A DNA stretch of 64,000 nt from an uncultured Lachnospiraceae bacterium (GCA_946611535.1 CAMODT010000138.1:2866-66865); one strand, 5' to 3'. Counted from the first letter of the stretch, positions 10,499 through 46,663 are shown. The notes: generated by a model from the letters alone, not told the origin. Numbers and translations are program-made.

Positions 10499-11491
10499 TC
10501 AGGGCCTGAAAGCTCCCTTGATAAACCCGGGCGCCTGCTTCTCCATCAGCTCGCTGACGCGGTCGAAATCCTCGGTATCGTAGACCGTGGTCACGCCGGT
10601 GAACTTCCAGATGCCTTTGCTAAGCAGCTCCATGCAGCGCCTGCACAGGCCTGCTTCGTAGTCGATCCGGCGCTCATGGCAGTTGATGGTGGTGATGGCC
10701 TTGAAGTTCCAGAGCATGTAATCGATGGTGCGCGGCCCGTCATTGTGATAACCGCCGATGCCGAGACGGCCGTGGGCCCTGACCAGGTCCCCTGCCAGCT
10801 GCAGCCCGCTCTCGGTGCCGGAAAACTCCATGACGGTGGGGATGCCCGGCGCGAAGACGTTGGCGTTGTCGCCGCTTCGGGTCAGGTCGGCCTTGCCAAT
10901 GGTCTCAAAATTGGAGTGGTACATCTCGGGGACCTCATCGGGCAGATAGGTCTCCGTGGCGCCGAACTTCTTCGCGAGCTCAAGGCGCTCCGGATGGAAG
11001 TCGATGGCGATGATGTCGCCGTAGCCCATGGCCTTGAAGAGGGAGATCGCGCCGAGTCCCATATAGCCGCAGCCCACCACGGCGATCGTATCGCCAAGAG
11101 TCTCCACGGGCAGTTTCATCGCCGCGCTCAGCAGGCAGGCCAGAGGCTCGGAAATCGCGTCCTCGTCCTTCAGGTTGTCGGGCACATGAGCCATTTTATC
11201 AGGGGTGACCACGATGTACTCCTTGTAAGCGCCGCCGCCGAGACCGGTGACCCGGTCGCCGACCTTGAAGCCGGTCACTTTTTTACCGATCTCCGCCACC
11301 ACACCGACGGACTCGTGGCCCAGCACGTCGCCTTCCTTCGCCGTCTGCCAGGAATAGAGCTCGGAGTGGCACATCCCGGTCAGCGTCACCCTGACCAGCA
11401 TTTCATTATCGCTGATCTTCGGAATGGGGACCTCAATGATCCTGCTCTTGCGCGGTCCCGCCATAACCATCTGTCTCATATTTCCTTCCAT
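10499..11491 (-). CDS. Zinc-binding (MDR family) alcohol dehydrogenase
   Basis: CHSE and GHE catalytic-zinc motifs, EPLAC, Rossmann VVGCGYMG. Confidence 0.85.
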   Translation of the reverse strand: MEGNMRQMVMAGPRKSRIIEVPIPKISDNEMLVRVTLTGMCHSELYSWQTAKEGDVLGHESVGVVAEIGKKVTGFKVGDRVTGLGGGAYKEYIVVTPDKMAHVPDNLKDEDAISEPLACLLSAAMKLPVETLGDTIAVVGCGYMGLGAISLFKAMGYGDIIAIDFHPERLELAKKFGATETYLPDEVPEMYHSNFETIGKADLTRSGDNANVFAPGIPTVMEFSGTESGLQLAGDLVRAHGRLGIGGYHNDGPRTIDYMLWNFKAITTINCHERRIDYEAGLCRRCMELLSKGIWKFTGVTTVYDTEDFDRVSELMEKQAPGFIKGAFRP

Positions 11492-11639
11492 GATGAAAAC
11501 GCTCCTTTCAATCTTGCTTTGATAAGCAGATTATACCCTGATCAAGGACAAATCGTTATCACGGAAACGGCAACAATCTGGACAAAAACGCTGTTTTCCG
11601 GTATACTGTGGTCATATCAGAAAAAGGAGGCTGAGTGCC

Positions 11640-12404
11640 ATGTCGCTTCTTTCCATCGGATTTTCCCCGTCTGTATTTACGGATTGTCCGCTCCATAACC
11701 ATGACTGCTATGAAATCATTTTAAATAAAGAAGGTACTGGAACGGCGGAGATCGGCGGACGGAAGGTTCCATTTTCTCCCGGAACGATCCATGTGATCCC
11801 GCCGAACACCCCGCACAGAAAACGCGCCGAGAAGGGCTTCCGGGATCTTTATCTTCACACTGACTCTCTCCGGCCTTCCGGGGCTCCGTCACTTCTCCCG
11901 TCCTCTTCCTCCGAACCGCTTTTTCTCTCCGACGACGCCGGCCGGACCATGGAGGGGCTCTTTACCATCCTTCTCGGCCGGAGTTCGCTCAGTCGGGGGA
12001 GCGATGTGATCAGCATGAGTCTCTTCGATATCGTGCTTCGCCTGATCGCCGAGTGGTCGCAGGCGGAGCCGTCCGACCCGGTTGTGAGCGATGTGATCCG
12101 CAGGATCTCCGAATCCTACAGCGACCCGGAATTCGAGGTCACGGACGCCCTGCTTGCCACGGGCTACAGCAAGGATCATCTGCGCAGACGATTCGAGCAG
12201 GTCACCGGCATGACGCCGGGCAGGTATCTGCGTTCCGTCCGGATCAACCACGCCAGGCAGCTTCTTAAGCGGCAGGACCTGCTGCACCTCTCAATCGGGG
12301 AGGTCGCGCTCATGTGCGGGTTCTACGACCCCTCCTACTTCTGCCGCGTTTTCCGCAGCGAGACGGGCGTATCACCGTCCGCGTTCATGAAAGATGCGCA
12401 GTGA
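11640..12404 (+). CDS. AraC family transcriptional regulator
   Basis: N-terminal cupin (H.HDCYEI), C-terminal double HTH (IGEVALMCGF.DPSYFCRVFR). Confidence 0.88.
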   Translation: MSLLSIGFSPSVFTDCPLHNHDCYEIILNKEGTGTAEIGGRKVPFSPGTIHVIPPNTPHRKRAEKGFRDLYLHTDSLRPSGAPSLLPSSSSEPLFLSDDAGRTMEGLFTILLGRSSLSRGSDVISMSLFDIVLRLIAEWSQAEPSDPVVSDVIRRISESYSDPEFEVTDALLATGYSKDHLRRRFEQVTGMTPGRYLRSVRINHARQLLKRQDLLHLSIGEVALMCGFYDPSYFCRVFRSETGVSPSAFMKDAQ

Positions 12405-34960: not shown

Positions 34961-35002
34961 ATGATAGCACGAGATAACCACAATTTCAATGGTTATCTCG
35001 TG
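34961..35002 (-). promoter_or_regulatory. Promoter TTGAAA-N17-TATCAT overlapped by a 13-bp inverted repeat
   Basis: CACGAGATAACCA-N9-TGGTTATCTCGTG (34968-35002) brackets the -35 box. Confidence 0.65.
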
Positions 35003-35594
35003 TTATCTGTTTCACGGGCTATTGCCTGTGTAAGTATTGGTTCTATTTTTTTCTGCCTGATGTTAACACCTGCCGCCAACCATTAAACCTGCAGCGGCAA
35101 TTTCACCTGCCAGGCGTTCTTTCTCGTTCGCTCGAATGATCGGCTCCATCCTGCTGTTTAAGACAGCGATATCGCTCTTCGAAACTCTTCTTACGATCAC
35201 AGAACTGCACTGTGCAGAAGACGCTTTAACAGCTTTCTTTCTCATAATCGCATGCTTGGCATATCTTACGATCCGGCTGATAAAGGACAGGATCCTCTGC
35301 CCTGACGTCTTACGACATTTCTTCGAATAGCTTTCAAGAAATCGTTTAGCGGAAGGCGTGAAAATGACTGCGACATTTTCATAAGAGTAGAATCGAATCC
35401 TTCGCGGACAAACAGCTAGTTCCTCACATATTATACCTGCTTACACTATAGACATTATTCCGAAGGATGGCAAACCCCCTCTGACATCCTTCCGAAGGAT
35501 ATCAAACGGAGTCTTGATATCATCGTCCTGAAGACAGCCCATTTAAACAGCTGATCACGGAGGATAATGATAAGGAACTAATCGATTCGCATGC

Positions 35595-35625
35595 AAAAGG
35601 TCCGGCCTCCCGGCCGGACCTTTTT
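35595..35625. terminator. Bidirectional-type terminator after the 3D-domain gene
   Basis: AAAAGGTCCGGCC-N4-GGCCGGACCTTTT. Confidence 0.8.
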
Positions 35626-35636
35626 GCTGCCTGTTT

Positions 35637-36239
35637 TTATTCATGTACCAGATACACATCCGCACTGCTCATCCCAAACCGCAGCGCCTCCTCATGGGAA
35701 TCCATAAAAATGTCCACATGCCCGTACGGCGTCCCGCGATCCTCAACCGTGTAGACCGTACCGTTGATGAGAAGCTTCGTCCCGAAGGGGACGCCGCCCA
35801 TCGCGACCGTGTGTCCGGTTGTCGGCATGACGCCGCTGGCGGTCGCATTTCCCGCGACACTGCAGCAGGCCGCACAGTGGCAGTAGGCCGTCAGGGTGAA
35901 CCGTCCGAGGTACTCCGCCGAGGCGAGCATCGCCTCCAGCGCCGCTGCCTCCGCTTTCGCTTGAGCGGCGGCAGCGGCCTCAGCCTTTGCCGCTTCCGCC
36001 GCCTCATAGGCGGCCCTGCGCCTTTTTTCCAGTTCTGCCTCCGCATCTTCGATCATCTCTTCGAAAGAGGAAGAGACTTCCTGACCGCTTTCCCCGGGTT
36101 CTGAAACAGCCTCCGCTGTATATTCATTCAAGTCCATGTCGGAAGCTTTGTCCCTGATGCCCGCGTAGACGGGGTCCGCCTGTGAGAAGACGAACATGGA
36201 TGCCGCAAGCAGCACACTTGTAATCTTTTTAAAAACCAT
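35637..36239 (-). CDS. Secreted 3D-domain protein (YocH-like cell-wall enzyme)
   Basis: Signal peptide, Ala/Glu-rich coiled linker, F.LTAYC...TASG...VAM..VPFGT...Y.VEDRG...VDIF. Confidence 0.85.
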   Translation of the reverse strand: MVFKKITSVLLAASMFVFSQADPVYAGIRDKASDMDLNEYTAEAVSEPGESGQEVSSSFEEMIEDAEAELEKRRRAAYEAAEAAKAEAAAAAQAKAEAAALEAMLASAEYLGRFTLTAYCHCAACCSVAGNATASGVMPTTGHTVAMGGVPFGTKLLINGTVYTVEDRGTPYGHVDIFMDSHEEALRFGMSSADVYLVHE

Positions 36240-36307
36240 AAAAAAACTCCTTTCGAGAACAGGATTATAGCACGGTTTTCCTGAAAGTAAAGGAGTTTTT
36301 AACATTT

Positions 36308-36324
36308 TGTAACATTTCTGTAAT
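36308..36324. promoter_or_regulatory. WalR-type box TGTAAC-N5-TGTAAT
   Basis: Exact match to TGTWAH-N5-TGTWAH, upstream of the TATAAT (36264-36269, minus strand) of the 3D gene. Confidence 0.6.
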
Positions 36325-36432
36325 ATTTACAGGGCTTTTGCGCTCCCGCCTATCCGCATCCGTCAGATTGGACACATTTTAAAAATGAAGCCCCCTCAAT
36401 TCCGGCAAATATGCACAACCTGGCGGCATTTT

Positions 36433-36924
36433 TCACATCGTCCGGAGCCTCCTGATGATCTCCTCCACCCGCCTGATCGCCTCGGCGACCTGCGAACGTG
36501 CCTCGTTGATCTTCGACTGGACGAAGAAATCCGCGATCAGCCCGTCAAAGAAAAAGTCCGCAAATGAAAGAAACCCGTCGATATCGATATTCATGTACTG
36601 GAGGTCCTGCACGTCGTCGAGCTCGTTGCTGAAATTCTGCAGCTCGTACTTTGCGTTTGCGATATCTCGTTTCGCGTCGTCGATTTTCGAATGTTTGATG
36701 AGATTGGTGATGAGGCCGCCGCCGAAGAGGTCGACGACACCGGCGATCCGGGCGGTCCCGAGGTCGTTCTGGGCCAGCTTGAGCGCCTCGAGCGCGCGCT
36801 CTCCGGCCATGATGGCCTCGTTGATCTCGGTCTGGCGGTCCTTGGGGACGTTCTGTCTCGTGTATTCGTATCCGTAGCCGGTTCCGTTTCCGTAATTGTA
36901 GTCATCGTAGCGCGTCATGATCAT
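36433..36924 (-). CDS. Conserved-looking helical hypothetical protein
   Basis: 163-aa ORF with host-like codon usage; DLFGGG and FADFFFDG segments; SD AGGAG upstream. Confidence 0.6.
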   Translation of the reverse strand: MIMTRYDDYNYGNGTGYGYEYTRQNVPKDRQTEINEAIMAGERALEALKLAQNDLGTARIAGVVDLFGGGLITNLIKHSKIDDAKRDIANAKYELQNFSNELDDVQDLQYMNIDIDGFLSFADFFFDGLIADFFVQSKINEARSQVAEAIRRVEEIIRRLRTM

Positions 36925-36980
36925 TCTCCTTTGTGTTCGGCTGCAGGCGGGGCCTGCGGATGAGGGCCGGAGGGCCTGCC

Positions 36981-37009
36981 GGTTTCGCAGAATAAGGCAT
37001 TCTGCGAAA
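36981..37009. repeat. Left copy of 29-bp inverted repeat (candidate recombinase site)
   Basis: GG-TTTCGCAGAA-TAAGGCA-TTCTGCGAAA; exact reverse complement of 43962-43990. Confidence 0.9.
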
Positions 37010-37071
37010 AGCCCGCGGACGCTCTGGATTTATATATGTATCAAGTAACAGTATACCACAAGGAGGGACAC

Positions 37072-40000
37072 ATGAAAAAGATGAAAAAAGTCCTGTCACT
37101 CGTCCTGGCGATGGTTATGATCCTTTCGCTGGGCGCAACTCCGACCTGGGCAGCCGGAAGAGGACAGAGCGGCTGGTCCAGCGTCACCTACGGTGCCGCG
37201 GAGGACAAGACCGAAGATACGGCGGAAGTTCTGGCAGAGGAGCTTGCGGCTCCGGCCGATGAATCAGAGGTTCCGGCCGAAGAACCGGCGGCTCCGGCTG
37301 AGGAGACCGAGGTTCCGGCGGAAGAGCCGGCAGCTCCGGCCGAAGAGCCTGAAGTTCCGGCGGAAGAGCCCGCAGCTCCGGCTTCTGAGCCTGAAGCTCT
37401 GGAAGAAAATATTGTTTCCTATCCCGCCGTCACCCTTGCGGGAATGACGGAGGGTTCTGTTGCCGTGCGCGTGGAGGCACCGGAGGGCGCTCTCCCGGAG
37501 GGCACGACCATGACGCTCAAGGACGTCACGGTTGAGGAGGTTCAGGCGAAGGTTTCCGGCGAGATAGAAGGCAGGATTGTCACGGCGGTCGACATCACCT
37601 TCCGTGACCTCAACGACAACGAAATCCAGCCAAATGGAAATGTTGCGGTTTCGATCAAGGCGCCTGAGCTCGCGGAGGCGGAGGCTCAGGAACTCGGCGT
37701 TCTCCATATCAATGAAGAGAAGAAGGAAGCTGAGGAACTGACGGCTGAGGAAAATGCAGTCGAAGTGAAAGCGGCCTCGGCAGATGAGGTGGCTTTTGTA
37801 AATGATGCCTTCTCCATCTATGTCGTTGTGGAGACCGGAAATGAAGCCAGACTGTTTGTCAATTTTGTCGGATTAAAAAATAGCCCAATCGCATCCATCC
37901 CCGTCAAGCAGGGTGATAAGATGGATCAGGTGCTCTATGATCCCGGCGCAGGCACTCTTGAAGACGGCGTGTACTTCCGCGGCTGGACGACGGATGCTGA
38001 TTATACGACTGCGACACCTGCTCTGACGATCTCTGATGTGCGTACCGCTGTGGCAGCCATGCTGCCTCCTGCGTCGGATGGCACAGAGGTGACTTACTAT
38101 GCGATGCTGTTCAAGGATTACCGGATCACTTACCTGGATGAGAAAAATATCTCTCTCGGCCAGGAGGAGGTGACGTTCCGCGCGGATGCTGCATCTGCAG
38201 AGCAGCAGTACAAAGTGAACATGGCCTACACCGTTCAGAATGAGAACTATCACTTTGAGGGGTGGAAGGTCAAAGATGGTTCCAGCAATATTGTTGGATA
38301 CGAAACGGATAAGGCCTATCAGAATAACGAAACCATCACGATTACCGGTGATGTCACCTTCAGTGTCAACGCACCGGAGGGCCATTGGTTTATCTTTGAT
38401 GCAAATGGTAAAGGAGCTACTTACAATGCTCCTCAGTTCGTGTATTCTGCCGATAAGCCTAGAAGACCGAATGATGAGAACATGATCCGCAACGGATATA
38501 GATTCGGGGGTTGGTATTCTTCAAAGGCGATCGCAGATGATTTGGAATCTACTGAAGAAGAATATGATTTTGATCAGCTTCTTACAGATAAGACTACTGT
38601 CTATGCTCGTTGGATTCCTAATACAACAGCAGGATATACTATCATTATCTGGAAGCAGAATCTGGCTGGTGACGGGTATGACTTCGTTGAGTCTATTCCC
38701 AAAACCGGTAATGTGGGCAGCAATATTGATACTGTAAGATATGAAGATGGAGATCTCCAAGTACAGCGTAATGGTAACACATGGTCAACTGTAGAATATA
38801 CCGGTTTCCACTATAAATCGTTTGATCAGAATGTTTCAATCAAGACAGAAGGAAACTCTGTTCTAAATATTTACTTTGATAGGAACGAACACACTCTGAG
38901 ATTTAAGACCTCAAGCGGTGGTATTAATACAAAAACAAAGTCGTACAATGGTACGACCTATACATTGGCACAATCCGGAAGTAATTACTACATTCAGATT
39001 AATGGAAAGTGGTATCGTGTCACTGGAAGTAGTGTAGGCAACTATTTCTGGGGTGATTATGCGATTAACAGTAATTACAATCATGTAACTAATATTACTC
39101 CTGGTGGATCTATATACTTTAAAAATAGTGGTTTACTTAGCCAATGGCATGGTCCGTATAGCATAGCCAGTACAGCAACTGAGTTGACTGACTCAAGTGA
39201 AGTTAAAACCATCACTGCGCTTTATGGCCAGCCCATTGGTGAAAACTTCCCTATCGTCGGCACAAACGGAGTAACATATAACAATGGTGAGCGCTGGAGT
39301 CCTCAGAACAGCACTACTTATAATCAGGTTCTCGTTTACATTGACACTATGCCTGATGAAGACGTAACGTTCATCGTCAACACTTCAACATATGGCACAA
39401 AAACTATTACATATTATACTGAAGTGCTGTCGGGCGAGACACCGGATATCACATACAATGGCAAGGGATTTAAAGAATATAAGTCTGTAGACGCGAAGTA
39501 TGGCTTCTTTACTGAAGCGGAAGACTATATAAACTTTGTAGGCTTCTCTAAAGGCGGCACCACATATCCGCCCAGAGCATATAACTCAAATGGAACACAA
39601 CTAAACTCTGTATGGAACAACGAAAACGCAAGATATGTACAGTGCTACTACACCCGTATCGTCTATCCCATCAACTTCATGGATGGCAAGTATGTAAACG
39701 GCGACAACAATCCTTTGGAAGAATCCGGCATGAGCCAGATCCATATCGAGGAAGATATCGCATATGGCGCTGACATTTCAGCACAGAACAACTATAAGCC
39801 AGATGCTACACATACACCTTCCGGATATGTTTTTGAAGGTTGGTACCTTGACGACGCGTGCACACAGCCGTACACATTCTCAACCATGCCGGAGGGTGGT
39901 ATCACTGTCTACGCGAAGTGGAGACAGAAGCAGTACCGTGTATTCCTTCATGTAAACTACCCTGAAGGAGCGACCGGTTATATCGACTGGGGTACAGCTA

Positions 40001-41844
40001 ACCAGGCATTGACCTTCCGTATCAGCGAAGGCGGTCATGTCAGTGAGCCTACCGGTAGAGGTCTGGCTGGGTATGCATTTGACGGTTGGTATCTTGATCC
40101 TGAATATACACGTGTATTCAACGGAGAAGCTTATACGATCAATGAATCCAACGTTACGACTCCTTACGACAAGTCTGTCGACATGACAGATACTTATGAC
40201 GTAAACGGTCAGCTGGTCGATCCGAAACGCAACTCGGATCTTACCGGCTGGGACGATGACGGAGATGAAAACACTCCCGGCAAAGAACGTTTCTGGATAA
40301 CCAAGAAGCTCGACATCTATGCTAAGTGGCATGCGACTCTGGATGGAGCGTCTGGCATCGTAGTGGAATACGACGCAAATGGGGGTAGCGGAGCTCCTAC
40401 GGACATCCATACCTACGTGGATACCGCTAAGGCCCCTGCAGGCGCTGCATCAACCGCCCAGGCAGGATCCGGTAAGGTATTCGGCTATTGGGCCGTCATG
40501 AAGTGGACTGAATCCGGGTGGGCAGAAACCGGTGAGACAGTTCTTCCCGGCGATACCTTCACCGTACTGAAAGCGAATGCGAAGGTAGAAGAACTTGCTA
40601 CGGCTGCGCCAAATGGAGATACCAAGAAGTACACAGTACAGCTGAAAGCTGTCTATATCGATTCCGAGAAACCGACGCCGACACATATCTGCTGGTTCGA
40701 AAATGACGGAACGGAAGCTTTCCATACAGATAAAGTAACTGGAGATCTTGGCATCAATGAAGCGGTTAATATTCAACCTGCACCGACAGACGCCCGGATT
40801 GAGGAAGGTTACAAATTCAAAGGCTGGGCAAGAGTAAAGATCAGCAGTTCTCAAGATTATGACGAAGCAGCAGGGGAGGCAGCTGCGTGGGAGGCTAATT
40901 CGAATAACTGGAAACAGGATAATCTTGAACTTTTCCTGTATTACAATGAGGCCAATGGTAAGTTTTATAAAGAGGCAGCATTCACTAATGAGGCTAAAGA
41001 GGTTGCAGCAGACGAAGAACTTCCGTATCATGCGATGTTCGCTGTCTGGGAAGCCAAATATTACGTTTTCAATTCCTCGACAGGTGTACTTCATGCCTAT
41101 ACATTGGAGAAGAATGTTGACCTGACAGATTATGTGTCAGACGGCCATCTTTACGGCGGCTACTACAGCGCGTACGGAGCATACAACGCTACCGATGGAG
41201 AGCTGGCTGCCGCTATGGCTGAGGCTGAAAAGAACGGAACTTATGAAACTCATGCAGAAGTATATACCGGAGACGCTATAAAAGCCAAGAACGGTAATCG
41301 CTTCTGGAGTAAGGCCAACCAGTTAACAGCGAAGGGAACCAGCGTCAATCCTAAGCCGAATGATGTTTATTTCTTGAAAGAGGTTCCGAAGAAGTATCTC
41401 AATACAGATGCAAGATGGGTCTACGATGTGACAAACAATGACCACAATATCCTGTACATGTACTTGATTACCGTCATTGATGATCCTTACTATAGCCAGG
41501 TCGGATACAAAATCATCAGTAAGGACAAACCGACAAAGGTAATTACAGCAAAGTTTACAGCAGTTAACCAGCAGAATGGAGTACAGAGTGGGTCCCAGAC
41601 AATCTCAGCGGCGACATATAAAGATGATGGCATAAGTCGCGGTTATCTGGGTGTCGTTGACGCCAGCACTGAAGTGATCGGCGGTCTTGCAAACGGATCC
41701 GTCTCTGTCCAGCCTTACTGGATAACACCTGACGGCGTCACAGTCCGATTTGGCGGTTACAACATTAACACTAAGGACGGTAATGCAGTTAAGGACGGAA
41801 ACCTCGAGCATAGTAATGTCGGAACCGAAGTAACGTATGAATAA
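37072..41844 (+). CDS. Large secreted/surface protein with multiple InlB B-repeat (Listeria-Bacteroides)-like domains
   Basis: SD AAGGAGG, signal peptide MKKMKKVLSLVLAM, EEPAAPAEE repeats, about 7 recurrent F.GW(Y) motifs; no LPXTG seen at the C-terminus. Confidence 0.8.
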   Translation: MKKMKKVLSLVLAMVMILSLGATPTWAAGRGQSGWSSVTYGAAEDKTEDTAEVLAEELAAPADESEVPAEEPAAPAEETEVPAEEPAAPAEEPEVPAEEPAAPASEPEALEENIVSYPAVTLAGMTEGSVAVRVEAPEGALPEGTTMTLKDVTVEEVQAKVSGEIEGRIVTAVDITFRDLNDNEIQPNGNVAVSIKAPELAEAEAQELGVLHINEEKKEAEELTAEENAVEVKAASADEVAFVNDAFSIYVVVETGNEARLFVNFVGLKNSPIASIPVKQGDKMDQVLYDPGAGTLEDGVYFRGWTTDADYTTATPALTISDVRTAVAAMLPPASDGTEVTYYAMLFKDYRITYLDEKNISLGQEEVTFRADAASAEQQYKVNMAYTVQNENYHFEGWKVKDGSSNIVGYETDKAYQNNETITITGDVTFSVNAPEGHWFIFDANGKGATYNAPQFVYSADKPRRPNDENMIRNGYRFGGWYSSKAIADDLESTEEEYDFDQLLTDKTTVYARWIPNTTAGYTIIIWKQNLAGDGYDFVESIPKTGNVGSNIDTVRYEDGDLQVQRNGNTWSTVEYTGFHYKSFDQNVSIKTEGNSVLNIYFDRNEHTLRFKTSSGGINTKTKSYNGTTYTLAQSGSNYYIQINGKWYRVTGSSVGNYFWGDYAINSNYNHVTNITPGGSIYFKNSGLLSQWHGPYSIASTATELTDSSEVKTITALYGQPIGENFPIVGTNGVTYNNGERWSPQNSTTYNQVLVYIDTMPDEDVTFIVNTSTYGTKTITYYTEVLSGETPDITYNGKGFKEYKSVDAKYGFFTEAEDYINFVGFSKGGTTYPPRAYNSNGTQLNSVWNNENARYVQCYYTRIVYPINFMDGKYVNGDNNPLEESGMSQIHIEEDIAYGADISAQNNYKPDATHTPSGYVFEGWYLDDACTQPYTFSTMPEGGITVYAKWRQKQYRVFLHVNYPEGATGYIDWGTANQALTFRISEGGHVSEPTGRGLAGYAFDGWYLDPEYTRVFNGEAYTINESNVTTPYDKSVDMTDTYDVNGQLVDPKRNSDLTGWDDDGDENTPGKERFWITKKLDIYAKWHATLDGASGIVVEYDANGGSGAPTDIHTYVDTAKAPAGAASTAQAGSGKVFGYWAVMKWTESGWAETGETVLPGDTFTVLKANAKVEELATAAPNGDTKKYTVQLKAVYIDSEKPTPTHICWFENDGTEAFHTDKVTGDLGINEAVNIQPAPTDARIEEGYKFKGWARVKISSSQDYDEAAGEAAAWEANSNNWKQDNLELFLYYNEANGKFYKEAAFTNEAKEVAADEELPYHAMFAVWEAKYYVFNSSTGVLHAYTLEKNVDLTDYVSDGHLYGGYYSAYGAYNATDGELAAAMAEAEKNGTYETHAEVYTGDAIKAKNGNRFWSKANQLTAKGTSVNPKPNDVYFLKEVPKKYLNTDARWVYDVTNNDHNILYMYLITVIDDPYYSQVGYKIISKDKPTKVITAKFTAVNQQNGVQSGSQTISAATYKDDGISRGYLGVVDASTEVIGGLANGSVSVQPYWITPDGVTVRFGGYNINTKDGNAVKDGNLEHSNVGTEVTYE
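37237..37395 (+). repeat. About four 42-bp tandem coding repeats (EEPAAPAEEPEVPA)
   Basis: Visible in the DNA (GCGGCTCCGGC...GAGGTTCCGGC units) and in the translation. Confidence 0.8.
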
Positions 41845-42220
41845 GAAGTATACACTATTATTATCTGCCCTGGCAGTAATTATTCTGCTTACGATCTGTT
41901 TATTACTGATTCGGCCTCGCACAGAGGCCAGATCAGGACAGACGCAGGATTCATCTTACAGTACTGCGTCTGTCTCCAATCAAAGTACAGAGGCAGATAA
42001 GTCAGAAATAAGTGCAGCGGCTGAAGCAGGAAGCAGCACCGCAAGTGATGCCCCTGCGGCAGATGCATACAGGGAGGATTCCGGCAATACGTTTTCCGGA
42101 GAAGAGATTTCAGAATCAGGGGGAGATAGTTCGACCGCTGAGTCTGAAATCCCTTCTGTTACTGTTACAGAAGAATATACCATCGAGCTTCAGGAGGGTG
42201 AAGCGATCGGTGGTTTCTGA
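41837..42220 (+). CDS. Small membrane-anchored/secreted Ser/Glu-rich protein
   Basis: N-terminal hydrophobic segment, low-complexity linker, short C-terminal motif ...TIELQEGEAIGGF; start overlaps the upstream stop. Confidence 0.65.
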   Translation: MNKKYTLLLSALAVIILLTICLLLIRPRTEARSGQTQDSSYSTASVSNQSTEADKSEISAAAEAGSSTASDAPAADAYREDSGNTFSGEEISESGGDSSTAESEIPSVTVTEEYTIELQEGEAIGGF

Positions 42221-42243
42221 TAAGAAAGGAGGTCTGATGGATT

Positions 42244-42525
42244 ATGGCTCAATTTACATTTGGGACCTGGTATCAGGGTTTTACAGAAGAAGACTATAAT
42301 AGCTTTAGAAGCAACACAGCTATAATGGAAATATTAAACCAATTTGGAGGTGTTCTTGAATATAGTTGTGACGGCGGTATCTGCTATATTGTCCCCGGAG
42401 CCGGAGATGGCGAAGCCTTGCGGAATGCACTTTTTGAAAGTGATGAAGGCCTTGAAGCTTCAGAGCTGTTAAATACATTCGTCTATTGCGGATCTGCGTA
42501 CGGCTTCTCGACATTTCTGGGTTAA
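42244..42525 (+). CDS. Small hypothetical protein A (paralogue of 43688-43936)
   Basis: SD AAGGAGG upstream; shares G.(W/Y)Y.G(F/L)TEE.(Y/F) and DGG..Y motifs with the paralogue. Confidence 0.6.
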   Translation: MAQFTFGTWYQGFTEEDYNSFRSNTAIMEILNQFGGVLEYSCDGGICYIVPGAGDGEALRNALFESDEGLEASELLNTFVYCGSAYGFSTFLG

Positions 42526-42627
42526 TTAAGCAGTATTGGATGATCAGTTTTATGTAAAAGGCAGAGAGGAGTCCCCGGCAATTTATTTTCCGGAGGCTCC
42601 TTTCGTGACAGGAGGCTATTCGGGCAA

Positions 42628-43359
42628 TTGACACAAGCGCAATCTTCAGAATACGTTACAATCAAGATCGCCGGGCACCCCATGCGCCTCTCCCTCCGTT
42701 ATCCTGCCGCAGCCCGATTTTTCAGGCAGTATGCGGCAGCTGAACCACCTGTCTTTCAGGTTCCGGAGGTCAATGAGGATGACTGGCAGGCGCTAATGCG
42801 CAGCGGATTTGTGCGCTCCGCCCAGATGGAATCGAGTTTCCTCTGCGCAAAGTGCTCCGACGTCCTTCTGCCGGAGCAATGCTGCCTCATTCACGCCGCC
42901 GCCTTCCGGGACAGAGAACATGCCTATCTACTCGCGGCCGACCCCGGCGTCGGCAAATCCACCCAAGTGCGGACGTTACAGGAGCTGTACCCGGGTGAAT
43001 TTTCCGTTATTTGCGGAGACAGGCCGGCTCTTAAGCTCACGGATGACGGCAGGGTCATGGTTCACATGACCCCTTGGAACGGCAAGGAAAACTGGGGAGG
43101 AGCACCGGCCGCTCCGCTGTCTGACCTTATTTTTCTTAAGCGGGGAGAGAGCTCGTCGCTGCGGCAGCTGACGGTCCGCGAGGCGGTCCTGCCCTTGTGG
43201 AGCTCCCTGATCCATACGGCCGAGATGGAGGAGGGGATCAGGCAGGCGGCGGAATTTGCCACAGGGCTGCTGAGCCGTATCAGGACCTGGGAATTTGTCA
43301 ACGGAGGTATCCCGGACTCCTCAAAAATGCTCTATGAGCAATTGCTTCGGAGGGAATGA
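42628..43359 (+). CDS. HPr kinase-like P-loop protein
   Basis: IHAAA...PGVGKST, GDRP, TPWNGKE motifs of HprK-related kinases. Confidence 0.75.
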   Translation: MTQAQSSEYVTIKIAGHPMRLSLRYPAAARFFRQYAAAEPPVFQVPEVNEDDWQALMRSGFVRSAQMESSFLCAKCSDVLLPEQCCLIHAAAFRDREHAYLLAADPGVGKSTQVRTLQELYPGEFSVICGDRPALKLTDDGRVMVHMTPWNGKENWGGAPAAPLSDLIFLKRGESSSLRQLTVREAVLPLWSSLIHTAEMEEGIRQAAEFATGLLSRIRTWEFVNGGIPDSSKMLYEQLLRRE

Positions 43360-43360
43360 T

Positions 43361-43645
43361 ATGACATACAAGTGCAGACCCGGCATCGTCCGTGTGAAGA
43401 TCTGCGGAGAGTATCTGCTGACCCCGACCAGGGCTGCCTCGGAAGCCTGCCCGAAGGTGCTGAGGCTGTCCATCATGAAGGCGGCGCTCTGGGAGGAGCT
43501 GGAGAAGGGACATGACGGGAGTGTCGTCGTGCGGGCATTTCATGCGCTGAGCAGAAAGCCGGAGGAAGAGATCCGCAAAAAGGTCGATCAGGCCCTCACA
43601 GAACTGTATGAAGGCGGTTTTATCATCAGGGCTGACGAAAACTGA
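43361..43645 (+). CDS. PqqD family protein (RRE-like)
   Basis: 94 aa: beta-rich start (RVKICGEYLL), ALWEEL, KVDQALTELYEGGFI, matching the PqqD pattern. Confidence 0.7.
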   Translation: MTYKCRPGIVRVKICGEYLLTPTRAASEACPKVLRLSIMKAALWEELEKGHDGSVVVRAFHALSRKPEEEIRKKVDQALTELYEGGFIIRADEN

Positions 43646-43687
43646 CCATGCGGTCCGGGATATGTCGCTGATGAAAGGAGCGGGAAG

Positions 43688-43936
43688 ATGACGCTGAAAA
43701 CAGGAGAATACTACGGACTGACGGAAGAGCAGTTCAGGGCACTCGGAAAATACGCAGGATTCAGGAACTTTGCGGACCGTTTCAGCCTTCTTCGCACGGA
43801 CGGCGGGAACTATTATGTCTACAGCGGAGAGCCTTACGAATTTTTTGAGTTCGCGGAGGACAACGAGATCGGCGAACGTTATAATCTGACGTATTTTACT
43901 TACATTTACCCCAGGAATTTTGTCACGGGGTTCTGA
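43688..43936 (+). CDS. Small hypothetical protein A' (paralogue of 42244-42525)
   Basis: SD AAGGAG; MTLKTGEYYGLTEEQF...DGGNYYVY. Confidence 0.6.
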   Translation: MTLKTGEYYGLTEEQFRALGKYAGFRNFADRFSLLRTDGGNYYVYSGEPYEFFEFAEDNEIGERYNLTYFTYIYPRNFVTGF

Positions 43937-43961
43937 CGCGGCTCATTCTTGATATAAAAAA

Positions 43962-43990
43962 TTTCGCAGAATGCCTTATTCTGCGAAACC
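43962..43990. repeat. Right copy of 29-bp inverted repeat
   Basis: TTTCGCAGAA-TGCCTTA-TTCTGCGAAA-CC. Confidence 0.9.
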
Positions 43991-44202
43991 CACTATTCGC
44001 TCTAAACGTTTGGATTTATAATATTCCTCATTCGAAATAATGTCAATAGATTTTCCGGTATTTCAGGATTGTATTTTTTTATACGAATCCTTCCAGACAT
44101 GAATACCGACCGTACGCAGTCAGCGCCCGAGAAAGGGCGAAGACAACCAGCAGACACCAGGAGATACCGCGGAAACAAAATTGCACCAGGAGGAATATGC
44201 CC

Positions 44203-45216
44203 ATGAAATCCACCGAACTGTTAACATTTGGCGATGCCGCATCCGAATGGCTCGCCGGTCTCCGGCCGGAACTCAAGGAATCCAGCCTCGCACGCTACCG
44301 GAACATACTGAAGATCCATCTGCTGCCGGAATTCCGGGACACCCCGGTCTCCGGGATCACCCGCGAGCAGGTAAACGACTGCCGGATCCGTCTCCTGAGC
44401 GGAAATGAAGACAATGCCGCCCTCGCCCCCGCAACCGTCTCCGCCATCCTCTCCGTCCTGAAACGAGTGCTGCGCTACGCCGGCAACGAAAAAGGCTGCC
44501 GCATCGCCGACCTCTCCTCTGTCACCGTGCGCCGAAATGTCCCCCGTCTGCGGGTACTGACCGGCGAGGAGCAGTTCCGCCTCACCCGTCATCTGTGCGC
44601 CAACCCGAGCCTGCCAAACCTTGGGATCCTCCTCACGCTCTACACCGGGCTCCGCATCGGGGAGCTCTGTGCCCTCAGATGGGAAGATATCGCCCCGGAC
44701 TCTCCGTCGATCCAGGTCCGGATGACCATGCAGCGCGTGCAGACCCCTGAACAGTCACCGCGCACGCGTGTCATCGTGACCGCCCCGAAGAGCCCGTGCT
44801 CCGTCCGGGTCATCCCGGTGCCGGATTTCCTGAAACCGATGCTCCTTGCCGCGCGGAGGGAGCCCGACTGCTATTTTCTGACGGGGACCTCCGATTCTTT
44901 TCTGGAGCCGCGCACGATGCAGAACCATTTCAGACGGATCCTGGCGGACTGTTCGATTGAGGGGGCTGTATTTCACACGCTGCGCCACACCTTCGCGACC
45001 CGCTGCATCGAGCAGGGGTTCGACCTTAAGACGCTGAGCGAGATCCTCGGGCACTCGGACATCGGCATCACGATGAACCGCTACGTGCACCCCTCCATGA
45101 CCTTCAAGCGGGAAAACATGAACAAGCTGGCCTCCCTCTTTGAGGGAAATCTGCTCCCGGAATCATTTGAGCCATCGCCGACGCGCAGGAAGACGGTCAA
45201 ATCGCCTGAGTCCTAA
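44203..45216 (+). CDS. Tyrosine recombinase / site-specific integrase
   Basis: SAM-like N-domain; all catalytic residues present: YTGLRIGE (R), PKS (K), HTLRH (H..R), LGH, RYVH (Y); SD GGAGG. Confidence 0.93.
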   Translation: MKSTELLTFGDAASEWLAGLRPELKESSLARYRNILKIHLLPEFRDTPVSGITREQVNDCRIRLLSGNEDNAALAPATVSAILSVLKRVLRYAGNEKGCRIADLSSVTVRRNVPRLRVLTGEEQFRLTRHLCANPSLPNLGILLTLYTGLRIGELCALRWEDIAPDSPSIQVRMTMQRVQTPEQSPRTRVIVTAPKSPCSVRVIPVPDFLKPMLLAARREPDCYFLTGTSDSFLEPRTMQNHFRRILADCSIEGAVFHTLRHTFATRCIEQGFDLKTLSEILGHSDIGITMNRYVHPSMTFKRENMNKLASLFEGNLLPESFEPSPTRRKTVKSPES

Positions 45217-45893
45217 CGCGTGCCCCGGTCATTTTCTTTTGCCAGGAAATAGGCTGCCACATGCATGGCCTGGAGGAAGGTTCCTTCGGCGATCATTTTC
45301 GCAAGGTCCTCCGGGGAGGCAAGCCTCACATTGAGAAATTCAATCGTGTCGAGATCCTGCCCGCTCACCTTCACGCAGTTCTTCGCCCGGAATATGTACG
45401 CCCAATTGTCCGCAATCGTCGCCGCCGAGGGGAGCTTCGTGAGGAACTCCCAGTCGTCGGAAATGTAGCCGGTCTCCTCGAGGAGCTCGCGCTTCGCGCC
45501 GGCGAGGGCATTTTCTTCCGGCTTCGCGAAAAAGGGTTCCGCCGTCGACGTCTCCGAGAACCCGGTGGCCTCCGGGTCGTCCTCGGGCTTTTCAAGCCCG
45601 TACTCCTCGTAGAAATCCATCCGGTACTCGCGGTCGATCCCGCTCTCGATCCCGCCGGCCGGGAACTCGTCCGTGACCCTGCGGATCCCCTGGCGGAACT
45701 GGCGCACCAGGATGTAGTTTCCGTCAGTGTCCGTCGCGACGATCACCGTGTAGTCCTTGCGGCTGAAGGTGTAAAATGGCCCAGCCGTCTTCCCGTCCGG
45801 CAGCATGTACTCACTCTTTCGAAGATCCATCCAGCGGTCGTGGATCAGCGTCTCGGTGGAAACGTGCCGCCAGGCGAGGTTTTCGTCTTTCAT
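45213..45893 (-). CDS. NUDIX hydrolase (ADP-ribose pyrophosphatase-like)
   Basis: LVRQFRQG...EFPAGG[insertion]AKRELLEETGY. Confidence 0.85.
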   Translation of the reverse strand: MKDENLAWRHVSTETLIHDRWMDLRKSEYMLPDGKTAGPFYTFSRKDYTVIVATDTDGNYILVRQFRQGIRRVTDEFPAGGIESGIDREYRMDFYEEYGLEKPEDDPEATGFSETSTAEPFFAKPEENALAGAKRELLEETGYISDDWEFLTKLPSAATIADNWAYIFRAKNCVKVSGQDLDTIEFLNVRLASPEDLAKMIAEGTFLQAMHVAAYFLAKENDRGTR

Positions 45894-45941
45894 TTTCCGC
45901 GCACCTCCCCGTTAACATGTCTTCATTATAGCAAATTAAGA

Positions 45942-45964
45942 GGCCGCGGGCAATTCCCGCGGCC
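45942..45964. terminator. GC hairpin after rubrerythrin
   Basis: GGCCGCGGG-CAATT-CCCGCGGCC; U-tract is weak. Confidence 0.5.
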
Positions 45965-45983
45965 AAAATAGAAGAGATTTCAA

Positions 45984-46529
45984 TTAATAATTCTCGGCGC
46001 AGACTTCGAAATAGCTCTGCGGATGGAAGCAGACCGGGCAGAGAGCCGGAGCCTCGGTGCCGATCACGATGTGCCCGCAGTTGCGGCACTCCCAGATTGT
46101 GATGCCGGCCTTCCTGAAAACTTCGAGCTCCTCGATGTTCTTCAGAAGCTTCCTGTACCGCTCCTCGTGATGCTTTTCGATTGCCGCGACGCCGCGGAAC
46201 TGGGCGGCGAGCTCCGCAAAGCCCTCCTCCTCGGCTTCCTTCGCAAATGTCTCATACATGTCGGTCCACTCGTAGTTCTCGCCTTCAGCTGCGGCGAGCA
46301 GGTTCTCCTCGGTCGTGCCGATACCGCCGAGCGCCTTGAACCAGAGTTTCGCGTGCTCTTTCTCATTGTCGGCGGTCTTCAGGAAGATCGCCGCGATCTG
46401 TTCGTAGCCGGCCTTCTTCGCGGCGGATGCGAAGTAGGTGTACTTGTTTCTCGCCTGGGACTCGCCGGCGAACGCGGCCTTCAGGTTCTGCTCGGTCTTT
46501 GTGCCTGCGTATTTGTTGTTTGCTGCCAT
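45984..46529 (-). CDS. rbr: Rubrerythrin
   Basis: [26 protein letters not shown]-terminal W.CRNCG...CPVC.HP. Confidence 0.95.
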
Positions 46530-46572
46530 GATAACCTCCTTATTGTGTGTATTGTGAATTGCCGGGAACTTC

Positions 46573-46654
46573 GGGGACGGTTCCTGGGGGACGGGTCCTG
46601 AAAACGGTTCCCTGTGGGAACCGTTCCCGGGACCCGTCCCTGGGAACCGTCCCT
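46573..46654. repeat. Nested REP-like palindrome
   Basis: GGGGACGGTTCC...GGGAACCGTCCCC enclosing degenerate inner copies. Confidence 0.85.
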
Positions 46655-46663
46655 TCAGTTTCC

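Follow-up and report, generated by a model that had tools for sequence, protein, structure and literature searches.

Does the tyrosine recombinase encoded beside a large surface-protein operon in an uncultured Lachnospiraceae bacterium turn that whole operon around, and if so, what would the turn switch? The locus in question lies at positions 36,981 to 45,216 of a 64,000-nucleotide (nt) stretch of DNA (GCA_946611535.1 CAMODT010000138.1:2866-66865), which is referred to below as the window and from whose first letter all positions are counted. It consists of a surface-protein operon bracketed by two inverted copies of a palindromic site of 29 base pairs (bp), followed by the recombinase gene. 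Phase variation by DNA inversion is well known, and in gut and rumen Clostridia it is documented mostly through read-based surveys of short promoter invertons. Our analysis indicates that the locus is probably a site-specific inversion switch of another format, in which the whole 6952-bp operon, and not a promoter, is the part that flips.

The inverted sites and the adjacent recombinase

The elements on which the question turns are listed here.
36981..37009, no strand: left recombination site, with the 7-nt core TAAGGCA when read in the sense of the surface-protein gene, 62 nt upstream of the start codon of that gene
43962..43990, no strand: right recombination site, the reverse complement of the left site
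37010..43961, no strand: predicted invertible segment of 6952 bp holding the whole operon, with leader, ribosome-binding site (RBS) and six open reading frames (ORFs), as judged from site geometry and the behaviour of the site family
44197..45216, plus strand: tyrosine recombinase with Phage_int_SAM_3 and Phage_integrase domains; the called gene starts at 44203 (337 amino acids, aa), which is the likely start

The right copy is the exact reverse complement of the left copy (GGTTTCGCAGAATAAGGCATTCTGCGAAA) at 29 of 29 positions, with 6952 nt in between, and the two form the highest-ranked inverted repeat within 34-48 kilobases (kb) of the window. In 100 shuffles of the window no match to the site arose, even when up to 3 mismatches were allowed. 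Sequence identity of the two copies ends at both 29-bp edges, and their surroundings are unrelated. Each copy is itself palindromic, with 11-bp arms (TTTCGCAGAAT and ATTCTGCGAAA) around the asymmetric 5-nt centre AAGGC, and an inverted copy can be distinguished from a direct one only by this centre and the two outer bases. By these positions, the asymmetric overlap region is identical in the two sites and lies in inverted orientation, as in an inversion switch; on the minus strand, which is the sense of the outward promoter treated below, the polarity of the right site equals that of the left site relative to the surface gene. The left copy sits between divergent genes, which start at 36924 (minus strand) and 37072 (plus strand, the surface-protein gene), and the end of the right copy is 206 bp from the recombinase ORF at 44197.

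This anatomy agrees with the preliminary description of the locus, which had claimed a perfect and sharply bounded 29-bp inverted pair, a left copy between divergent genes, a right copy about 210 bp upstream of the recombinase, and a recombinase with all catalytic residues. Its 10+7+10 palindromic layout is likewise correct, the arms of 11 bp around AAGGC being the finer account. It had also proposed a genome search for further copies, with many plain terminators or repetitive extragenic palindromic (REP) elements as the contrary outcome; the whole assembly of 2.5 megabases (187 contigs) holds four copies and no more, and the site therefore does not represent a REP or generic terminator family. 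Matches to half-sites or to the T-run motif in two other contigs (C105 and C13) fell within coding sequence and were discarded as chance, and a literature search with the arm sequences returned only unrelated primer matches.

The recombinase matches Phage_integrase at 1.3e-22 with an intact R, K, HxxR, H, Y catalytic set, and the motifs GLRIGE, HTLRH, GHS and NRYVH are seen in its alignments to XerA and Tn1549 Int. It scores under every NCBIfam cut-off, and for this reason no name finer than "tyrosine recombinase" is given. An exact-protein look-up found no match for the 339-aa form, and for the 337-aa form only the contig of the source run itself, SRR5322963, in the same orientation as in the window. 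The family to which it belongs is very large (more than 7298 proteins at E < 1e-40), and in most homologues the gene lies inside an invertible module of 1.2-1.5 kb that has an outward-facing promoter. The window recombinase is encoded beyond the segment, with no site after its stop codon, so that the locus is not a self-contained module of this kind. Many contigs of the family are merely 1.1-1.5 kb long, which is suggestive only, as the expected output of an assembler for a repeat-bounded segment in two orientations. Among 78 recombinase loci from named Clostridia genomes, 20 carry sites with TTTCG[C/T]AGA arms.

Related sites in public metagenomes

The behaviour of such sites was explored in public metagenome contigs, which were scanned for TTTCGCAGA-N9-TCTGCGAAA. 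This pattern occurs in at least 119 contigs, many of them from the human gut, and the counts of pairs, states and linked recombinases reported below rest on the 119 contigs listed. The 9-nt centres vary freely among loci, and within a contig with two sites they are always reverse complements, with at least 64 inverted-centre pairs and 0 direct ones. Where contigs have common outer flanks, the state agrees in 19 locus pairs and is opposite in 19 others, in which the inner flanks are swapped and reverse-complemented; the opposite states cover at least 7 different switches. Since the same outer flanks occur with both inner states, the DNA between such sites inverts in nature. The spacings between sites cluster at about 210, 330-365 and 1200-1550 bp. 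Further, 57 of the 119 site-bearing contigs encode a homologue of the window recombinase (32-51% identity), typically 55-130 bp from a site, an association that supports the arms as the conserved target of this recombinase family.

These observations also bear on whether any recombination is needed to explain the pair. A 10-7-10 palindrome is typical of dimeric DNA-binding proteins, and the right copy with its T-run resembles a terminator, both of which would suit operators or plain hairpin terminators through which a regulator, or the recombinase as a repressor, controls two transcription units. The spacer of an operator, however, need not be an exact reverse complement, whereas the family centres differ between loci and still pair as reverse complements within each; moreover, the intervening DNA of family sites is found both ways round, and the left copy has no T-run on either strand. 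We therefore consider an operator or terminator function without recombination very unlikely. The operator alternative of the preliminary description thus finds no support, while its leading proposal, inversion of the whole cassette by the adjacent recombinase, is strongly supported by comparison, through the family arms, the invariably inverted centres and the two states seen in homologues. That the two window sites are a genuine inversion pair for this recombinase appears highly probable.

The scan also yielded observations on the genes that accompany the sites and the recombinases. In five metagenome or genome loci (L024, L026, L029, L095 and L157) a TnpB-like gene with a Cas12f1-like_TNB domain starts 16-120 nt beyond a site, and TnpB-type genes may thus be under inversion control, or associated with the tyrosine recombinase. 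In one subfamily (L006, L013, L069 and similar loci) the site is placed inside a longer palindrome, AAGGGAGGTTGGA-site-TCCAACCTCCCTT, which was seen in one state only, and 43 nt beyond the site begins a ResIII/helicase gene that has HA domains; this may be a phase-variable defence or helicase gene. Other loci of the recombinase family adjoin a Flp/Tad pilus operon, a BspA-type leucine-rich repeat surface protein, SARP-like regulators or a helicase. Finally, what appears to be one and the same recombinase (L133-L146, L188 and L194; 46% identity to the query and equal alignment statistics) is present in isolates from many genera, among them Anaerostipes, Butyricicoccus, Negativibacillus, Eisenbergiella and Phascolarctobacterium, with no recognisable site nearby, and is probably carried by a horizontally spreading mobile element.

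A predicted fixed promoter, a predicted terminator and the predicted state of the locus

What an inversion would switch depends on the transcription signals at the right end of the segment.
44018..44046, minus strand: predicted fixed outward promoter (Pout), TTGACA-17-TATTAT with 11 of 12 matches, outside the segment
43949..43991, minus strand: predicted orientation-dependent terminator, formed by the site hairpin (stem of at least 11 bp, 4 G-C pairs, about -13 kcal/mol) followed by U6-AUAU
37021..37034, plus strand: GCTCT-GGATTTATA motif, with a second copy at 43999-44020

Pout is the best sigma-70 match in 35000-46000. Lying in the gap that separates the recombinase gene from the right site, it faces leftward into that site, and its transcript is predicted to start some 20 nt short of it. 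Of 42 homologous loci, 36 have such an outward near-consensus promoter 13-67 bp from a site, on the strand that does not encode the recombinase. Neither the left flank nor the 62-nt leader contains a plus-strand promoter that scores at least 9 of 12, and the operon as a whole lacks one of its own at this threshold; the possibility that the present orientation is an ON state driven from the left was rejected on this ground. The GCTCT...GGATTTATA sequence that the preliminary description had noted at both sites is real, but its reading as a shared design of two plus-strand promoters does not hold: the right-flank copy is the -10/start region of the minus-strand promoter read on the opposite strand, and there is instead one strong predicted minus-strand promoter that would fire into the right site.

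Read on the minus strand, the right site leads into TTTTTTATATCA, and the combination scores as an intrinsic terminator, the T-run of which (43956-43961) is part of the inner end of the segment. In a constructed flipped leader the hairpin is followed by AGCCCGCGG... instead of a U-run, and then by the 62-nt leader, the RBS and the surface-protein gene. The prediction is thus one of an external promoter with a terminator at the repeat junction in one orientation only, the arrangement of the cwpV switch of Clostridioides difficile that is compared below. Across the family, 33 of 273 distinct contexts have a T-run directly after the site, compared with 1.9-3.8% of controls (p ~7e-9).

In the mechanism that we propose, the adjacent recombinase would bind the palindromic arms (TTTCGCAGAAT) of both sites, as the behaviour of its family suggests, strand exchange would take place in the identical and oppositely oriented centres, a geometry that is directly visible, and the 6952-bp segment would invert. 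Pout (44046-44018, minus strand), as a predicted and conserved element, would remain fixed and fire constitutively into the right site. In the orientation as sequenced, its transcript would form the site hairpin, meet the U6 contributed by the inner end of the cassette and stop after about 55 nt, which predicts an OFF state. After a flip, transcription from Pout would pass through the site, the 62-nt leader and the RBS and cover all six genes of the operon, beginning with that of the surface protein, which predicts an ON state. Speculatively, the transcript of the flipped operon, which crosses the left site without a U-run, could run on into 36924-36433. On balance, the sequenced orientation is likely OFF and the flipped one ON. 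We infer the flipping of this 7-kb pair at a useful rate, the activity of the promoter and the terminator, and the identity of the ON state from these features and from the family.

The inversion would also bring the two GCTCT-GGATTTATA copies into inverted orientation, and in the predicted ON leader AGAGCG pairs with CGCUCU around the site hairpin. In the homologous cassette L204 (9760-9790, 9725-9732), GCAAAAG and CUUUUGC are likewise complementary across the site in the ON arrangement. The ON leader may thus fold into a longer stem enclosing the site hairpin, although chance is an alternative and the significance is uncertain.

Large cassettes comparable to that of the window were found with two related recombinases. 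In L204 the recombinase is 57% identical, the arms are identical and the core differs by 1 nt, and the order is a promoter-like TTGACT-17-TACTAT, the site, a 108-nt leader, a 1316-aa surface protein, a small ORF, an ScmC-type kinase and PqqD. In L211 (recombinase 51% identical) two divergent surface-protein cassettes, one VWA-type and one Flg_new-type and each with ScmC and NTP_transf_5, are both preceded by a site with the centre TATAACA, and between them lies a module of promoter, ABC transporter, recombinase and strong terminator. The layouts of L204 and L211 correspond to the arrangement predicted for the flipped (ON) state of the window locus. L211 and a second scaffold, L213, have the same recombinase protein, beside cassette A in one and beside cassette B in the other; L213 was not counted as the opposite state, because its join is a run of N, placed in the leader and N-terminus of about 415 bp that cassettes A and B have in common (an 81% identical inverted repeat). 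The difference could reflect mis-scaffolding, homologous recombination or real switching. In L206, diverged sites enclose a 1.34-kb segment (11031-12396) with a small gene at either end, of 140 and 144 aa. Both genes face inward, and their RBS and start regions, which lie directly inside the sites, are identical; the arrangement is a flip-flop of two genes, placed downstream of the recombinase.

Junctions of the flipped type at the left flank itself come from unitigs of two rumen/gut metagenome studies (X8/X9, which are probably a single data set under two entries, and X11). These carry 58-72 nt of the left flank plus the site at 100% identity, and from the first base past the site they run into CATTTTTTATATCATGAATGCCGCC... 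(CATTTTTTATATCATGAATG...), which is homologous to the right inner end in reverse complement (TTTTTTATATCAAGAATGAGCCGC), with the similarity breaking exactly at the site edge. A further contig (X4) with a joint from 42302 to 37035 was dismissed, as it rests on two 19-nt matches.

Several points weigh against inversion of this operon. The contigs of the isolate in the Logan assemblies cross both sites in the window orientation only and without a branch; such contigs drop rare variants, and the single orientation therefore limits only the frequency of switching. The flipped-type unitigs are of read length with a depth of about 2, and their cassette end is only about 75-80% identical to the window and therefore stems from a different cassette or strain. 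Metatranscriptome contigs match the cassette genes at 95-99%, from which it follows that relatives express such cassettes, in one or the other orientation. Pout and the terminator are consensus predictions, and a search for RNA runs across the junction found none. Among the recombinase modules a T-run lies on exactly one flank in 7 of 26 and on both flanks in 0, so that the terminator feature is recurrent and not universal. All 82 related site pairs are at most 3.1 kb apart, which makes a 7-kb inversion by this family an extrapolation.

The single orientation in the isolate and the spacing of the related pairs, together with L204, where no partner site lies within about 9 kb, would fit a fossil or locked switch, in which sites and recombinase were inherited from an active ancestor, the 7-kb layout is a one-off without meaningful flipping and the operon is controlled in some other way. 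Amid unrelated surroundings, however, the two 29-bp sites have stayed identical, also in the 2 bp beyond the arms, the recombinase retains an intact ORF and catalytic residues, and the placement of the T-run yields a terminator in this orientation only. A locked switch is in our view improbable, and a working whole-operon inversion switch remains the preferred reading.

Operon content, further site copies and known switches

The genes of the cassette and its left flank are as follows.
37060-37067, plus strand: RBS of the surface-protein gene, AAGGAGGG, upstream of the start at 37072
37072..41844, plus strand: surface protein, 1590 aa, with signal peptide, PAEEP repeats and Listeria-Bacteroides repeats
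41837..42220, plus strand: small membrane-anchored surface-associated protein, 127 aa, with a weak SAG1386/EF1546 match
42244..42525, plus strand: ORF without family match, 93 aa
42628..43359, plus strand: P-loop protein, HprK- or ScmC-like, 243 aa, 37% identical to the ScmC-annotated (ScmC-type kinase) gene of the L204 cassette
43361..43645, plus strand: PqqD-like small protein, weak match
43688..43936, plus strand: final ORF of the cassette, 82 aa
36433..36924, minus strand: left-flank gene without family match, 163 aa, and without a match in an exact-protein look-up

The surrounding genes are of the housekeeping type (NUDIX, rubrerythrin, ABC transporter, CorA, HypF, cation efflux and nucleotidase), and the neighbouring genes include no phage, relaxase or excisionase gene, as had been claimed before. 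The 29-bp repeats could in principle be terminal inverted repeats, marking the ends of a transposon or integrative cassette with which the surface operon arrived, since the G+C content of the cassette is uneven (39-60%) and cassette content at the same flank differs among strains. Yet the cassette has no transposase domain and no target-site duplication, the flanks reading ...CCTGCC and CACTAT..., and it is thus no transposon by these marks; furthermore, the recombinase lies outside the repeats, inverted sites of tyrosine recombinases give inversion and not excision, and the same site occurs upstream of paralogous genes without a second repeat. A mobile element of this sort is the least probable of the explanations considered here.

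The gene body of the window surface protein has no paralogue in the assembly, and the sole similarity of the protein is 30% over its C-terminal 159 aa, to the L204 protein. Directly after the signal peptide, a tandem 21-nt (42-nt) repeat at 37225-37413 encodes PAEEP/PVEEP units, and the Logan contigs of the isolate break at this repeat. An ScmC/HprK-like P-loop protein accompanied by a PqqD-like protein, NTP_transf_5 nucleotidyltransferase, ABC transporter or radical-SAM enzyme recurs beside a large surface protein in recombinase-linked cassettes (window 42628-43645; L204 4221-5287; L206 7471-9837; L211 2243-2995 and 16705-18923). Their recurrence suggests a conserved module with a possible role in peptide or protein modification. 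Elsewhere in the window, at 46564-46663 near the rubrerythrin/ABC-transporter junction, there are nested inverted repeats of 25-26 nt that are 77-88% complementary (GGGACGGGTCCTGAAAACGGTTCCC).

The two further copies of the site in this genome, on contigs C174 (35975-36001) and C180 (46818-46844), have one arm mismatch and the centre TAGGGTA where the window has TAAGGCA. In each case the ATG of a gene follows 52 nt downstream, and this gene has its leader, RBS and signal peptide (MKKMKKVLSLVLAM...) in common with the window surface protein; the site therefore appears as part of a conserved unit of site, leader and surface gene. In the direction of the genes, the centres are related to one another and keep a constant polarity: TAAGGCA (window), TAGGGCA (L204) and TAGGGTA (C174/C180). 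Both contigs end 128 nt past the site, inside the shared leader/signal-peptide region. The missing gene bodies could be on two other contigs, C115 and C185, each of which runs out in a long open surface-protein ORF. Both extra copies (loci L003, L004, L208 and L209) border capsule or exopolysaccharide (EPS) genes, namely Wzz, CpsD-like and sugar transferase genes on C174 and NTP_transf_5, EpsG and aminotransferase genes on C180; a paralogue of the small protein at 41837..42220 is encoded immediately upstream of the C174 copy.

Together with their broken contigs, these paralogous units raise the possibility of a multi-locus system, in which one recombinase serves the window, C174 and C180 units, cassettes are exchanged or toggled between expression and silent sites, and the centre, not the arms, decides on pairing. 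The toggle designs of L211 and L206, with two alternative genes each, and the different cassette end that metagenome strains show at the left flank of the window would be in line with such a system. However, the four copies fall into two centre classes (TAAGGCA twice and TAGGGTA twice), fewer than the three or more compatible sites of a shufflon of the Rci/sfx or Mycoplasma vsa type, and the assembly contains no third site with a matching TAAGGCA centre. Tyrosine recombinases require matching overlap regions, and the C174/C180 centres differ from TAAGGCA at 2 of 7 positions, in addition to one arm base; cross-recombination with the window sites is therefore unlikely, and C174 and C180 more probably form a separate pair. 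The contigs of the isolate, moreover, join each flank only to its own leader variant, with no cross-joined C174/C180 leader variants among them. A multi-locus system is thus an unlikely account of the window locus, although a second invertible segment may lie between the C174 and C180 sites.

Within the preferred reading of a whole-operon switch, a more far-reaching and tentative idea is that the site serves two purposes. As DNA it would be the target of the recombinase, with near-invariant arms and a free centre acting as a private address, and as RNA it would be the stem of a terminator whenever a flip supplies the U-run. Two orthogonal pairs (TAAGGCA and TAGGGTA) would then serve three paralogous surface genes at capsule/EPS borders, and one recombinase could run several insulated whole-operon switches that set the surface repertoire.

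Among known systems, the cwpV/RecV switch of C. difficile is, by analogy, the closest mechanism. There, a RecV-linked switch flips a 195-bp leader segment without promoter or ORF (Emerson et al. 2009, PMC2784873). The start codon follows the inverted repeat by about 57 bp, and transcription in the OFF state stops about 60-70 nt after its start, at a stem-loop (four G-C pairs) with a poly-U tract that forms at the inverted-repeat junction (PMC2784873). The window locus resembles it in having a tyrosine recombinase, a surface-protein target, a predicted fixed promoter outside the invertible DNA and a predicted terminator at the OFF-state junction, and the distances are similar, with a site 62 nt before the start codon (about 57 bp in cwpV) and a predicted OFF transcript of about 55 nt (about 60-70 in cwpV). 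It differs in that the whole 6952-bp operon with six ORFs would flip and not a short leader, in that the predicted terminator stem is the palindromic recombination site itself, and in that its recombinase gene is a direct neighbour, RecV being encoded elsewhere and acting on many switches. A PhaseFinderDC survey of hCom2 described a Clostridia "inverton group 139" with a tyrosine "invertase group 35", comprising short invertons with a recombinase nearly always nearby and flipping in reads; the published examples are promoter-type invertons of about 230-260 bp (PMC11892184). The switches of 209-211 bp that have the arms of the window resemble this class, compared by description only and not by motif, and the window locus differs from it in comprising a 7-kb operon.

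Other inversion systems have individual features in common with the locus. Most of the homologues resemble Salmonella Hin, in that recombinase and outward promoter lie inside a 1.2-1.5-kb segment and flip together; Hin, however, is a serine recombinase that needs Fis and an enhancer, and in the window recombinase and promoter would stay fixed and the target operon would flip. Escherichia coli fimS (FimB/FimE) likewise shows tyrosine-recombinase inversion beside the recombinase genes, ON/OFF control of a surface structure and orientation-dependent termination, but is 314 bp long, carries its promoter, has 9-bp non-palindromic repeats and needs IHF and Lrp. In Campylobacter fetus sap and Mycoplasma vsa/vpma, inversions on the kb scale link one promoter to alternative large surface genes with conserved 5' ends, to which the three paralogues sharing site, leader and signal peptide in the present genome are comparable. 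The C. fetus system, by contrast, is RecA-dependent and acts via long 5' homologies, and in Mycoplasma the sites lie inside the coding 5' ends and many compatible sites are shuffled, whereas the window has only two compatible centres.

On this reading the locus presents a known toolkit of recombinase and site in a different format, with a fixed promoter, a flipping 7-kb operon and a crossover site that doubles as a terminator stem. It is probably an unusually large member of a widespread and little-studied family of switches in gut bacteria, hosted here by a member of the rumen Clostridia. Most pipelines for finding invertons cap the segment size at about 1 kb, and the locus, if confirmed, would therefore widen the targets of such searches. 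If this reading is true, a very large and uncharacterised recombinase family would be tied to the heritable ON/OFF control of large surface proteins and of ScmC/PqqD-type genes in rumen bacteria, and would offer a compact recombinase/site pair with apparently programmable centres.

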